Below, in pieces: positions 737 through 5,151 of a DNA stretch of 64,000 nt. This stretch comes from Candidatus Eiseniibacteriota bacterium. GTDB lineage: Bacteria > Eisenbacteria > RBG-16-71-46. Under the pieces are notes generated by a model, which saw only the letters and a program-made list of their open reading frames with translations, did not search any database and was not told the origin of the DNA. Numbering within the stretch: position 1 is the first letter of the stretch; each line of letters begins with the position of its first letter. The translations under genes were made by a program, and so were the position numbers. The DNA is taken from the NCBI GenBank assembly GCA_963707915.1, contig OY970178.1, positions 1,088,001 to 1,152,000 of the forward strand, written 5' to 3'.

Positions 737-1874
737 CGCCTCCGCGGGGGAGATGCCGCCGGGGGCCCGGGAGCGGAACGCTGCGAGACGCTGGAGCCCG
801 GCCTACGTCAGCCCGTAGCGCTTCGCCCGGTTGATGAGCGTCGTGCGCGGCAGGCCGAGGATCCGGGCCGCCTCGGTGCGCGAGCCGCGGGCCTGGGCGA
901 GCGCCTCCCCCATGCGGCGGCGCTCGGCCTGCTCCAGTTCCTCGACCAGCGTCGTCGGGACCTCGGAGTTCTCGAGCTGGAGACTCTCGGGCGTCACCTC
1001 GTGATCTTCCGCACCCAGCAGGACCACGCGCTTGATCACCGAGCGCAACTGGCGGATGTTGCCCGGCCAGGAGTACCCGGCGAGTCGCCGGATCGCGGCG
1101 GGCGACAAGCGCACCTGCCGCTTCGCCGCCGTGCAGGCCTCCTGCAGGAAATGCTCGACCAGCAAGCCGACATCGTCCCCCCGCTGTCGCAGCGGCGGCA
1201 GCACGATCACGGCGTGGGCCAACCGATAGTAGAGGTCGATCCGGAACCCATCGCCCCGCTCGAGCGCGGCGCGCTCGCGATTGGTCGCCGCGATGATCCG
1301 CGTGTCCACGGCGACATTGGAGTTGGAGCCCACGCGCCGGACCTCGCCGGTCTCGAGGAAGCGCAGCAGGCGCGACTGGAGCTCGACCGGCATCTCGGCG
1401 ATCTCGTCGAGGAACGCGGTGCCCTTGTCGCAGACCTCGAACATGCCCGGCTTGTCGCGGCTTGCACCCGTGAACGAGCCCGCCACGTGGCCGAACAGCT
1501 CGCTCTCGATGATCTCCCGCGGCAGCGAACCCGCGTTGATGGCCATGAACGTGCCCTTGCGCAGGGAGAGGGCATGGATGCCCCGCGCGATCAACTCCTT
1601 GCCGGTTCCCGACTCGCCCAGGACCAGCATCGGCGTCTGGCTCGCCGCGAGCTTGGCCACGTCGTCGAGCAGGGCCAGCATGGCCGGGTTGCGCGTGACG
1701 AGCCTGAAGTTCTCGAACGCCCATGCCGCACGGCGGTCGACGTCCGTCGAGCGACGCGGGCGACGCGGCGCGTGCCGCTCGTCGGCCAGGGCCGCGTCGG
1801 CCACCCGCCCGGCGGCTTCGCCGTGCGGCTGCACCTGAACCGCGCCGGGTTCTCCGGAGAGCTCCGGACTTGAG

Positions 1875-2786
1875 TTACGCCACCTCGGTCTGGGTGGCCT
1901 GACGATGATAGTACGCCTCCTCGAACTCGATCGGGGGAACGTATCCGAGCGGTTCGAGCAGGCGCTTGCCGTTGAACCACGCGACCCAGTCGAGTGTTGC
2001 GAACTCCACGTCGTCGAGCCCCTTCCACGGCCCCAGGCGATGAATGACCTCCGCCTTGAAGAGCCCGATCACGCTCTCGGCCATCGCGTTGTCGTACGAG
2101 TCCCCCTTGCTGCCCACCGAGGGCTCGATGCCCGCTTCGGCCAGCCGCTCGGTGTAGCGAATCGACAGGTACTGGACGCCCCGATCGCTGTGATGAACCA
2201 GCCGCTCCGACTCGGCGATGGGGCGGTCGTAGAGCGCCTGCTCCAGCGCATCCAGTGCCAGGTCGCTGCGCAGCGAGTTCGACGCCCGCCAGCCCACGAT
2301 CCGCCGCGAGAACACGTCGATCACGAACGCCACGTAGACGAAGCCGCGCCAAGTCGCCACGTACGTCAGGTCGGCGACCCAGAGCTGGTTCGGTCGCGTC
2401 GCGCTGAACTGCCGCGTCACCAGATCCAGCGGCCGCGCTGCCAGCGTGTCCGGAATCGTCGTCACCTTGAACCGGCGGCCCCGCACCGCACCCTGCAGGC
2501 CCAGCCGGCGCATCAGGCGCGCGACCGTGCAGCGGGCGACCGGAACCTGCTCGCGCTGGAGCTGCTTCCACACCTTCCGCGGGCCGTAGACCTGCTGGTT
2601 CTCGTTCCAGACGCGCCGGACCTGCTCAGCCAGCTCCTGATCCCGCCGGGCACGCGCCGGACGGCGTTCGGGATCGCGCTCCCGCGCCTTGTGCTCGTGG
2701 TAGACGGATGGGGCGATCGGCAGCACCTCGCAGATCGGCTCGACCCCGTACTGCTCGCGGTGTTCGTCGATGAACCGCACCATCAC
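1875..2786 (-). CDS. IS3 transposase OrfB (DDE integrase core)
   Basis: [52 protein letters not shown] motifs. Confidence 0.96.
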
Positions 2787-3103
2787 TTCGCTCGGCGGTC
2801 GAGCTCCGCCTGGGCGAAATACGCCGCCGCCTTCTTCAGGATCTCGTTGGCGCGCCGCAGCTCGAAGTTCTCGCGTTCGAGCTGCTTCAGACGGGCGCGC
2901 TCGTCGGTCATCAATCCGGGTCGAGTACCCGCGTCCCGCTCCGCCCGCCGCACCCAGCTGCGCAGCGTCTCAGCCGCACAGCCGATCTTCTCCGCGATCG
3001 AGGTGATCGCCGCCCACTGTGTCGCGTACTGCTCGCGGTGCTCGAGCACCATCCGGACCGCCCGCTCGCGCACCTCCGGGGAAAACCGGCTCGCTCTCGC
3101 CAT
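2783..3103 (-). CDS. IS3 transposase OrfA (HTH)
   Basis: [14 protein letters not shown]...[16 protein letters not shown]...[29 protein letters not shown]; stop overlaps orfB start (GTGATG). Confidence 0.95.
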
Positions 3104-4604
3104 GACTCCATCCTCTCAGGCAATGGAGCCTCCGGGAAACCCGGCGCGGTTCACACCAGCTTCTCGATCCGCGCCTTCGCCTCGGCCAGCTTCGCCTCGG
3201 CGCCCATCCCGTCAAAGTGGTTGCGCGCAGCCTGGTAGGCTTCGAGAGCGCCCTTGCGATCCGCGTAGGCGCCCGAATGCGGCCCCAGCAGCCAGTCCCC
3301 GTAGGCCATCCAGAGCTTGCCCCACTCGTAGGGGGTCGCGATCTCGTCGAAGAAGGCGAAGCCTTCGTCGAACCACTTCCTGGCCTCGTCCGGCCTCCCG
3401 GTGGCACCCGCGCTCAGAGCCATGATTCGATAGGTGGCGGCTTCTTCGTAGCGGTCGCCAACCCTCTGAAAGTGCTCCAGGGCGGACTTAGCTTCGGCGT
3501 AGGCCGCTTCGTGGCGGCCGAGGAGGCAGTAGCACTCCGCTACCCGACGGCGGAGATCAGCAACGACATCGCCCTTCGGGAACACGGCCAGCGCCTTTCG
3601 GTAGACCTCTTCGTACTGAGTCAGTGCCCCGGCCGCATCGCCGTGCTCCAAGGTCACATCACCCAGATACTCGGCGGCGAGGAGTGCCGCTCGCGATTCC
3701 CGGGAAGGCACGTCCCATCCCGGAATCGCTCGACAGAGGTCCGCCGCCAGAGTCCACCTCCCCTGATGCATCAGGGCGGCAGCCTTTATCAGCTTCGCGT
3801 AGGACAGCGCTGATTGGTCCTCCGAATCGCCTCCGCTAGCAATGCACGTGTCAATGATCTGGAGTGCCTTCTCAATACTCCCACGTCTCCAGTGAAGCAT
3901 GGCCACGCCGCGGCGCGCGTGGCTAAGTTGCCTCCGATTGCCAGCTGCTTCGTGAATCTGCAGCGAGGCCTCGCTTGCCTCCATTGCCTCCGCCCATCTG
4001 CAGAACACACGTTCAAGCATGGCGCGGTTTTCGACCGCAATACCCTCACTCGCCTTGTTTCCCGAACGTCGGGCCGACACGAGACCGTCGAGTGCAAGAT
4101 CGCGCGCGGTCTTGAAGTCGCCCAAGATCGTGTGCGCTGCAGAGAGTTGGATTGTGCAATCCGCAAGAAGATGGGAATCCGGTTGCGTGAGCAGGCGCTC
4201 CCTCAACTTGCTCAATCTGCGAATCGCCTCCTCGGGCCGATTAAGTAGCCACAAGCTTGTTCCCTGCAAGAGTCGAACGCGACAGGCAATTTCGGGCAGC
4301 CTCTGTAGGAGTTCAGGGCAACGCGCCTCAGTGGTCTCTGCCAACTCGAGCGCCTCCGCGTAGCGCCCAACGGAATTCAAGACAGCGACCTTTGCTATCT
4401 CCGCTCTCAACACAATCTCTGCAGTCAGGAACTTGCCTAGTGGCTCAAGTGCAGCTAAGAGACTCATAGCTACGCGGGCCTCGCCCGCAGCAATCAAGTC
4501 CTCGCAGAGTCGGATGGCGGATTCAGCCAAGGGCTGCTGCGCCTGCTCCAAAGGCCCTTCCATCAGGAGCTTCATGAGCGAGGCTGCGCGATCAAGCACT
4601 CTGG

Positions 4605-5081
4605 TCATCGCTTCACCCACGGGCGAGGCGCACACGGCGCAACCCACACTCGCGCAGGAAGCAAGGCACTCAGTGCCACAGTGGCCAAGCTGACAGAGAG
4701 ACCGCTGGGGGCAAGAACAGATGGGAACCACACTCGGCGCGGGAGAATGAATCGGGTTGTAGGGGGTACGTCTGGCTCCCCCATCTCCTGCGTCGGCTTC
4801 GGATCTCCTGGCGTGAGCCGCGGCGCGATGATCCTGGCGCCTCCCTCCCGTGGGTCAAAGACCAGCGTCGCGATCAGGAGCAGTGTGGTCACCATCGCCA
4901 CCCCGACACGAGGATGCCCCTTCGCTGGCGCCCTCGGAGCCCTGCCTCCGTGCGAATCCGGCGTCGCTGCCTCCTCCAGATCGGTCCCGAAGAACGCAAA
5001 ACGGCCCTGCGCCGACGGCAAGGGGCCATCAGCGTAGGGCCGGGGGCAAGTCTCGGTTCGGAACGGAGGGGGTGCGGCCAT
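4605..5081 (-). CDS. Small hypothetical exported peptide precursor (start uncertain: ATG 5081, ACG 4964 or an internal GTG/ATG)
   Basis: Basic stretch, hydrophobic VGVAMVTTLLLIATLVF, possible cleavage after EGGA, Pro/acidic core PGDPKPTQEMGEPDVPP, hydrophobic tail. TGA overlaps the ATG of the TPR activator (ATGA, 4605-4608). Confidence 0.55.
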   Translation of the reverse strand: MAAPPPFRTETCPRPYADGPLPSAQGRFAFFGTDLEEAATPDSHGGRAPRAPAKGHPRVGVAMVTTLLLIATLVFDPREGGARIIAPRLTPGDPKPTQEMGEPDVPPTTRFILPRRVWFPSVLAPSGLSVSLATVALSALLPARVWVAPCAPRPWVKR

Positions 5082-5116
5082 GAGAATCCCGATCCAGACT
5101 ACCGGTTCACCTGACG
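4990..5116 (-). ncRNA. Putative structured leader or small RNA (long hairpin followed by intrinsic terminator)
   Basis: Starts about 6 nt after a -10 box. Pairings CGUCAG/CUGAUG, CCGG/CCGG, AGUCU/AGACU and GGAUCGGGAU/GUUCCGAACC close a loop containing CCCCCUCC; then a GC hairpin and GUUUUGCGUUCUU. Confidence 0.55.
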
Positions 5117-5122
5117 CATATG

Positions 5123-5151
5123 AGCCTAGGCTGGCGATGCCGACCGGTCAA
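5123..5151 (-). promoter_or_regulatory. sigma70-type promoter for the leader/peptide/TPR-activator transcript
   Basis: TTGACC-17 nt-TAGGCT on the minus strand. Confidence 0.75.

Follow-up and report, generated by a model that had tools for sequence, protein, structure and literature searches.

A near-universal pairing of small exported-type proteins with TPR-sigma54 activators in Candidatus Eisenbacteria: a possible RRNPP-like module, interrupted in one genome

The window analyzed here is a stretch of 64,000 nucleotides from a Candidatus Eiseniibacteriota bacterium (assembly GCA_963707915.1, contig OY970178.1, positions 1,088,001 to 1,152,000 of the forward strand). Between positions 803 and 5151 its minus strand carries a module made up of a promoter, a structured leader RNA, a small open reading frame (ORF) for an exported-type protein, and a gene for a sigma-54 activator whose sensor is an array of tetratricopeptide repeats (TPRs). 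The original prediction for this DNA proposed a peptide-sensing circuit analogous to the RRNPP quorum-sensing systems. Comparison across Candidatus Eisenbacteria indicates that the pairing of such a small ORF with a TPR-sigma54 activator is a near-universal, phylum-wide rule, and that the cassette of this particular genome has been inactivated by an insertion sequence (IS) in the activator and by loss of the start signals of the small ORF.

All features of the module lie on the minus strand. A terminator-like hairpin (5191..5222), situated 3' of an M16-peptidase gene (5256-7415, minus strand, Peptidase_M16_C match) that is the upstream neighbor, insulates it; this hairpin folds at -37 kcal/mol (5222-5191, z -5.13) and 0 of 200 shuffles were as stable. 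A sigma-70-type promoter, TTGACC-17-TAGGCT, follows at 5151-5123. The aligned position matches the regular expression TTGnnn-16/18-TAnnnT in 29/33 sequences; in L030 the expression match is misplaced and the alignment shows the true site. Both elements were part of the original prediction and are borne out. The hairpin leader that it described is also present, but is more than a hairpin, being a translated, attenuator-like leader of ~195-220 nt. It contains helix P1 (5050..5099), whose 13 pairs enclose a loop holding a conserved AUG (5081-5079) beside a UCCCCUC-like box, with a Shine-Dalgarno-like GGGA in the 5' strand of the helix. The frame opened by this AUG overlaps a terminator-like hairpin (5042-5002), recognized by fold and covariation, and its U-rich run (5001-4991). 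In the window the leader ORF and the small ORF form one continuous open frame of 158 aa (4605..5081). Alignment with 27 relatives places a GGAG..CUCC hairpin and a degenerate Shine-Dalgarno sequence at 4929..4950.

The small ORF predicted to encode a signal peptide is found downstream, with a core of 96 aa from ATG 4895 (4605..4895) that holds a hydrophobic signal-like segment, a GEPD motif (4781-4770) and a basic, variable C-half; its Shine-Dalgarno sequence, usual start and basic n-region have, however, been lost in the window. An ATGA overlap (4608-4605) joins the stop of the small ORF to the activator ATG, in line with the coupling originally proposed. Both domain halves of the activator are present. 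A TPR sensor part of 485 codons (3154..4608) matches TPR_12 at 2e-22, upholding the proposal of a TPR-like input, and an AAA+ sigma-54 interaction domain, lid and Fis-type helix-turn-helix (HTH) occupy 803..1831, in a frame open from 1834. The gene is nonetheless split by an IS3-family element of 1318 bp (1836..3153), and the ~827 aa attributed to it are obtained only when the two pieces are rejoined.

Is the small ORF a constant companion of the activator? The comparison drew on 52 related loci from metagenome-assembled genomes of Candidatus Eisenbacteria, 33 of which, with the activator N-terminus, were examined; in the other 19 the N-terminal match is missing or broken off at a contig end. 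One of the 33 has just 45 nt of upstream DNA and stands outside the count. At 29/32 testable orthologous loci the activator is preceded by a small ORF that has both a signal-like N-terminus and a G(D/E)P motif, and whose stop overlaps or abuts the activator start. Where the overlap with the activator ATG was measured it is 4, 8 or 17 nt (13/13 loci). Twelve of the examined loci come from the same species as loci from the family-wide orthologue search. The same arrangement extends to paralogous TPR-sigma54 genes, which were found in the same genomes as weak TPR matches of 22-33% identity. Upstream DNA was taken for 54 of these genes, two being left out at contig ends, and all 52 testable loci have a small ORF, 44 by an automatic rule and eight, with variant motifs or spacing, by eye. 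A further 20 paralogous loci from other families gave 19 (eight by rule and 11 by eye, with GDPT, GDND and GDPS variants). The paralogous total is thus 71/72, and the viewed stretch of the 72nd ends before the motif position. Homologous activators therefore do carry a conserved upstream small ORF, as the original prediction expected of them. The sampled paralogues, of 800-1071 aa, have TPR and Sigma54_activat matches in 12/12 cases and HTH_8 in 11/12, with a GAF domain too in two of a ~1040-aa type. The window genome itself holds two further small-ORF/activator pairs (L002 and L003), and 72/81 sampled genomes of the phylum have a TPR match at E <= 1e-12.

In relatives the small ORF encodes ~86-116 aa with a start of the M-K/R-x-x-R-R type, a hydrophobic segment, a stretch rich in Pro and Asp, and a motif of the form G-D/E-P-D/N/S. 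The only invariant residues in an alignment of 27 sequences are M1, G39 and P41. A profile search of 1.84 billion representatives returned 349 relatives (cluster representatives) at E <= 0.001. The best 150 of these 349 have a median length of 101 aa (5th-95th percentile 92-122 aa); all but one of them (149/150) carry the G[DE]P motif, and 42-63 aa follow it (5th-95th percentile). The protein has no Pfam or NCBIfam family, and an Atlas search gave nothing usable. A hydrophobic core, with a 10-residue Kyte-Doolittle mean >= 2.05, is seen in 27/27 sequences, and relatives of the window protein have a basic n-region and A-x-A-like sites. After the signal segment the charge shifts from about -2.6 before the motif to +4.7 after it. 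Conservation of coding, which the original prediction needed, is evident in the 349 relatives, in the base composition of the N-half and in the dN/dS of close pairs (0.32-0.83). Over the three codon positions, GC content runs 0.67/0.51/0.77 for the N-half; the values are 0.66/0.55/0.60 for the C-half and 0.67/0.47/0.69 for the activator. In 13/13 loci no stop interrupts the C-half, an outcome to which shuffles assign a chance of 0.11-0.35 per locus.

The subfamilies of the small protein differ outside the core, and several end in a conserved Trp/Arg/Leu-rich helix. Genomes of family f10 (L153, L158-L161) have an activator type of ~780 aa with a distinct, well-conserved small-ORF subfamily, characterized by a G-D-P-T-(A/G)-(D/E)-D-x-P-S-P-(T/G)-P-K core (variant in L153) and a C-terminal ...W.LYLRIL.RL..R helix. 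The ~1040-aa paralogues with a GAF domain between TPR and AAA+ (L144, L145 and L003 of the window genome) are preceded by small ORFs with an S-G-E-P-D-(V/A)-G-Q-T core. A PEP-CTERM-like sorting signal or single-pass anchor after the motif was considered and set aside, membrane-helix grade (a 19-residue Kyte-Doolittle mean >= 1.6) being attained in only 8/27 and 31/147 sequences.

The C-terminal part of the activator matches Sigma54_activat (PF00158, 9e-57), AAA_lid_14 and HTH_8 (2.7e-10), and it has a Walker A (GESGTGKE), a GSFTGA loop and a Walker B (FLDEI). With an AAA+ domain bearing Walker A/B and a GAFTGA-type loop, a C-terminal HTH and rpoN in the genome, it has the features of a sigma-54 enhancer-binding protein, save that in this genome the gene is interrupted. 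The window AAA+/HTH part is 87% identical to the intact orthologue in L009. The activator start at ATG 4608 is common to 13 orthologues, and intact orthologues measure 811-842 aa. Such intact orthologues occur in 17/24 other genomes of the same family, and none was found at E < 1e-60 in 16 genomes of five other families. An AlphaFold2 model of the TPR part, built from a 31-sequence alignment, is an all-helical repeat solenoid or superhelix of 25 helices (pLDDT 92.5, pTM 0.88). Foldseek of this model against the Protein Data Bank (PDB) ranks peptide-bound TPR domains of LGN/Pins, and APC5, at the top; the RRNPP receptor NprR appears at rank 47. In a profile search of PDB sequences, LGN, kinesin light chain and a designed PPR protein stand above NprR (6.7e-6) and RapJ (1.2e-5), and PH0952 and AfsR are also among the matches. 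These matches show a fold of the peptide-binding kind but point to no specific kinship with RRNPP receptors. A complex prediction of the TPR domain with residues 21-96 of the small protein scored 0.00 against a mark of 0.32; it was run without controls and counts neither way.

The leader RNA is conserved over ~160-220 nt together with the promoter hexamers, also at the three orthologous loci where the small ORF is absent. Helix P1 (UCUGG.UCGG ... CCGA.CC.AGA) recurs in single-sequence folds, as does a long hairpin with a U-rich run behind it. This hairpin folds at -35.8 kcal/mol in the window (z -3.81), and across nine sequences 11 of its 18 pairs are compensatory. A covariance model built from five close leaders finds the leader in full at 21 loci, plus one broken by a contig start; it misses it in 11/33 sources, though MAFFT shows the leader in several of these. 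Pairs were counted on the model-fitted alignment, which leans towards the model, over 20 distinct forward-strand rows, 10 of the 31 model rows (reverse-strand or partial) having been left out. On this alignment 83% of P1 cells are paired and 11/13 pairs have changes on both sides; for the hairpin 90% of cells are paired and 16/18 pairs show double changes. None of 300 shuffles reaches the observed covariation score, and sliding the register gives nothing near it. From MAFFT alignments of 28 leaders, RNAalifold returned no structure. In Rfam the window leader has no match at E <= 1 save a chance-level one to Scr3202 (23 bits vs a gathering score of 52), and eight other loci gave no leader match at E <= 10. 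A look-up of RNA sequencing runs for positions 4500-5300 turned up none. Since the model finds the leader in just 1/56 paralogue loci, it belongs to the orthologue group of the window.

At the aligned position of the leader AUG there is an ATG in 16 rows and a GTG in one, with a GTG one codon later in two and no start identified in two; 19 of 21 loci thus have a start at this position or one codon on, and the frame is open through the hairpin in all 21. In 15 rows the leader ORF ends in an overlap with the start codon that follows (4 nt in 12, 1 nt in two and 8 nt in one), and in 6/21 rows, including the 158-aa ORF of the window, it is fused in frame with the small ORF. At two of the loci where the small ORF is absent (L028, L077) the leader ORF couples directly to the activator. 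Neither the sequence of the leader peptide nor the spacing between the AUG and the C-rich box is constant, so it is the RNA and the open frame that are kept. As the leader ORF overlaps a terminator-like hairpin and U-rich run (the run being too weak for a consensus scanner), the leader can by analogy be regarded as a putative leader-peptide attenuator. In most loci a GGAG..N..CUCC hairpin abuts a GAAGGAG Shine-Dalgarno sequence before the small ORF (4925-4950 in the window), and this row of GGA motifs may serve as a second control point, acting on translation.

Two assemblies carry two copies each of the window-type cassette at different places, and these paralogues are mosaics. In L035/L036, identity is 93-100% from the promoter to just before the motif, 33-60% over the remainder of the small ORF plus the TPR codons up to ~295, and 82-100% over the remaining TPR and AAA+ regions; the corresponding ranges for L041/L053 are 65-85%, 32-62% and 77-97%. 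At the protein level, the small proteins of L035/L036 are 89% identical in the N-half and 24% in the C-half, and their TPR parts 42% identical in the N-part and 93% in the C-part. Over all pairs, mean identity is 33% for the TPR N-part and 61% for the C-part. The variable block is therefore one contiguous stretch running across both genes. It fits a specificity cassette, and it could also have arisen by gene conversion that stopped at an old, less constrained block. Downstream of the orthologous activator of L041 lie four tRNA genes (5615-6718), and the downstream DNA is common to L051 and L053.

The element that splits the activator is a typical IS3-family insertion sequence throughout, and it matters here as the splitter of that gene. 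Its orfA (3103-2783, HTH_Tnp_1) overlaps orfB (2786-1875, rve), both on the minus strand; its ends, TGAACC...GGTTCA, are inverted and of the TG...CA type, and a 4-bp target-site duplication, CACC, flanks it (1832..1835 and 3154-3157). Insertion at the TPR/AAA+ junction leaves pieces of 485 aa (TPR) and 343 aa (AAA+/HTH), and the first IS bases provide the TGA stop of the TPR part (3153-3151). With the IS and one copy of the duplication removed, the activator reads as one frame of 827 codons by coordinate frame arithmetic, no joined sequence having been built. Three copies of the element, 100% identical over 1317 bp, are present in the 3.62-Mb genome, and a 4-bp duplication accompanies two of the three. 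Copy L006 (G000:C1:447075-448392) has CTAG on both sides; copy L004 (G000:C1:1460333-1461650) has no duplication and may mark a rearrangement between copies.

The start region of the small ORF has also changed in the window. The Shine-Dalgarno position reads GAGGGCG vs GAAGGAG in relatives (GAAGGAG-N6-ATGATG in the sister species), and the usual start position (4922-4920) reads AAG, giving AKGHPR.. vs AMMQPRRW in L009/L027. The only long frame across the small ORF is the 158-aa ORF (5081-4605). Other activator orthologues are apparently disrupted too, namely L021/L075 (G010), L017/L047 (G020) and L022 (G021), in which the frame is either split (557-581 aa) or broken within the match by one TGA and one TAG. 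These cases are either recurrent decay or assembly errors.

The host genome has rpoN, OppA-family binding proteins, signal peptidase I and Omp85-family genes, the last of which, in a control search, were found only in diderms. Its only Sigma54_DBD match (rpoN, 5.6e-63) lies in the window at 18367-19800 (minus strand), ~14 kb from the broken activator. Sites of the -24/-12 type with at most one mismatch number two in the window vs 3.4 expected, so there is no excess. One of them, TGGCACTTATCGTGC, has one mismatch and lies at 21310-21324 (minus strand) just upstream of an ORF at 19830-21290, in a window where such sites are at chance level. No neighboring gene is kept beyond the genus; the commonest upstream ORF occurs in seven loci and has no Pfam family, and no downstream DNA is conserved in the orthologue group of the window. 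Directly upstream of the module, at 5256-10495 (minus strand), are two large M16-family peptidase-like ORFs of 719 and 1025 aa, and an M16-type upstream neighbor recurs only within the genus of the window (L027, L028, L031).

How might such a cassette work when intact? The sigma-70-type promoter would drive the leader of ~195-220 nt, in which P1 would hold the leader AUG in its loop and keep the Shine-Dalgarno-like bases paired, and so hidden. A ribosome on the leader ORF would run through and melt the terminator-like hairpin, preventing premature termination, and would be handed on by stop/start overlap from the leader ORF to the ~100-aa exported protein and then to the ~827-aa activator (TPR - AAA+ - HTH). 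The exported small protein, or a fragment cleaved from it, would return by a re-import route and serve as the cognate input of the cytoplasmic TPR domain, with specificity set by two variable parts, the first ~295 residues of the TPR domain and the C-half of the small protein. The G-D/E-P core of the ~100-aa precursor may be a universal processing or recognition site. Ligand binding would relieve repression by the TPR domain and free the AAA+ domain to assemble and to open sigma-54 promoters at other sites in the genome.

An RRNPP-like signal/receptor pair with a sigma-54 output, inactivated in this genome, is a plausible reading to which we give somewhat less than an even chance. More tentative is its extension to the phylum, in which diderm Eisenbacteria would possess encoded peptide signaling of the RRNPP kind, with one to four orthogonal channels per genome, each a precursor and a TPR-sigma54 receptor, together with dialect cassettes and, in the orthologue group of the window, gating by the leader. 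The published signature describes RRNPP propeptides of 10-100 aa by default (21-50 aa for validated examples), secreted by Sec (SignalP) or PptAB, and receptors of 250-500 aa with TPRs, the two genes being directly adjacent (PMC10075063). Measured against that signature, the Eisenbacteria cassettes have a TPR receptor and adjacent genes, and they match it roughly in the propeptide, whose size is borderline and whose secretion is judged by heuristics. Like RRNPP(A) systems of Bacillota (Rap-Phr, NprR-NprX, PlcR-PapR, AimR-AimP), they set a gene for a precursor with predicted Sec-type export beside one for a cytoplasmic TPR receptor, occur as several paralogous pairs per genome and vary on both the signal and the sensor side, and NprR and Rap are among the sequence and fold matches. 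The differences are considerable: the receptor, of ~820-1070 aa, acts through a sigma-54 AAA+ domain and a Fis-type HTH in place of an HTH or phosphatase, the precursor is ~100 aa, lies upstream with a stop/start overlap and has a G(D/E)P core in all subfamilies, and the host, to judge by Omp85, possesses an outer membrane. Both the binding and the import of a peptide are here putative.

The analogy put forward in the original prediction thus finds backing in pairing, adjacency and TPR fold, but several observations weigh against it. Besides the disruption of the circuit in the window, a partial Mantel test of the small-protein C-half against the TPR N-part detected no specific co-divergence (r 0.076, p 0.135), in a comparison where the C-half is near saturation (mean identity 23%). 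The nearest structures to the TPR part are generic TPR proteins rather than RRNPP receptors. By the limits given in PMC10075063, orthologues of 811-842 aa far exceed the receptor range of 250-500 aa, and the propeptide (96 aa in the window, median 101 aa) is at or above the upper limit and about twice the validated range. Export is predicted from hydropathy and A-x-A-like sites, not from SignalP, and in the window the protein read from ATG 4895 has no basic n-region. A diderm host needs routes for the peptide to leave and re-enter; the check made here was for OppA-family genes, which are present. Three orthologous loci have no small ORF (L028, L072, L077), and neither a sigma-54 promoter at a conserved place near the loci nor a conserved target gene was found. 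Lastly, a consensus promoter/terminator scanner called neither element between 4500 and 5400, where the T run at 5191-5222 is short; the evidence for the promoter is for this reason its conservation and not a consensus match.

What else could account for a small protein so closely tied to an activator? It might be bound by the activator before export, so that on failure of Sec export or of the envelope the precursor occupies the TPR domain and a sigma-54 stress regulon is switched on with no need for re-import. Such a monitor would explain the tight stop/start coupling, and hence a fixed proportion of small protein to activator, as well as conservation of the whole ~100-aa length rather than of a short peptide; it removes the problem of crossing two membranes (Omp85 present), and the fusion of the leader ORF in 6/21 loci would extend the protein at its N-terminus and bury the signal segment. 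A general export sensor would not, however, be expected to occur as several orthogonal paralogous pairs in one genome or to show dialect-like mosaics, and no envelope or secretion genes are linked to the loci; we consider this explanation unlikely. Slightly less credit is due to the idea that the small protein is a co-expressed surface, matrix or antimicrobial-like effector while the TPR domain of the regulator senses something else. The acidic pro-part and basic part after the motif (-2.6 to +4.7), the W/R/L-rich C-terminal helices of some subfamilies, the lack of a co-divergence signal in the partial Mantel test and the retention of the activator without a small ORF in three loci all suit an effector of this sort, but it leaves unexplained a pairing that is near-universal across TPR domains only ~25% identical, and a mosaic block that spans both genes as a unit.

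Regulated proteolysis of anti-sigma factors offers another model, in which, once the signal peptide is cleaved, the hydrophobic stretch after the motif would span the membrane. Its basic tail in the cytoplasm would tether the activator by the TPR domain, and an event on the periplasmic side, at the GDPD motif, would set the activator free. The acidic segment before the motif, the basic tail and the conserved length after it accord with this arrangement. It is nevertheless improbable, given that a membrane-helix grade is reached in only the 8/27 and 31/147 sequences mentioned above and that other subfamilies have no hydrophobic element except an Arg-rich helix right at the C-terminus, after which nothing is left to form a cytoplasmic tail. 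It is still harder to believe that the leader ORF and small ORF are translated spacers, coupling ribosomes to the activator and controlling the attenuator while their products have no function. The C-half, with its weak codon bias and near-random sequence, is always open, and loci without the small ORF couple the leader ORF straight to the activator, both of which a spacer would allow; against this stand a signal-like N-terminus and an invariant G-x-P motif kept across subfamilies, a clear coding bias in the N-half (GC3 0.77) and dN/dS below 1 in most pairs.

The RRNPP-like reading also has to be placed among regulators of other design. Enhancer-binding proteins with an inhibitory N-terminal sensor domain include XylR/DmpR and NtrC1/DctD, and the window activator shares with them the order sensor - AAA+ (GAFTGA-type loop) - HTH_8 and the presence of rpoN in the genome, but its sensor is a 485-aa TPR superhelix and not a receiver, GAF, PAS or V4R domain. 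Inputs on record for sigma-54 activators are receiver, GAF, PAS and similar domains, and a literature search on TPR with sigma-54 activators found no description of a TPR-input activator. STAND regulators (MalT, AfsR, PH0952) resemble the Eisenbacteria proteins in that a TPR/SUPR-type sensor governs an oligomerizing NTPase and a DNA-binding domain, and TPR_MalT scores in the Eisenbacteria paralogues. Unlike in those regulators, the NTPase here is a sigma-54 AAA+ domain rather than NOD/NB-ARC, the sensor comes first and the presumed ligand is encoded by a gene. For the leader, the parallel is pyrBI of Escherichia coli, an attenuator whose leader ORF runs through the terminator. In both, the frame of a short ORF begins ahead of a terminator-like hairpin and its U-run and continues across them, so that a ribosome close by would block the hairpin; the Eisenbacteria leader differs in having its start codon and Shine-Dalgarno-like bases within the covarying helix P1, and its ORF coupled to two further cistrons.

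Peptide pheromone systems with cytoplasmic TPR receptors are, to our knowledge, regarded as a specialty of Bacillota. The pairing rule suggests that a phylum without a cultured member harbors an entire class of signal/receptor pairs, and it supplies concrete pairs of small protein and sensor domain for testing. It is accompanied, in the orthologue group of the window, by an undescribed leader RNA in which a covarying helix and a putative attenuator hairpin are combined with translational coupling in three tiers. Should binding of the small proteins by their TPR partners prove true, the range of encoded-peptide signaling would widen to diderms and to sigma-54 control; if it is refuted, the strict pairing would still demand an explanation.

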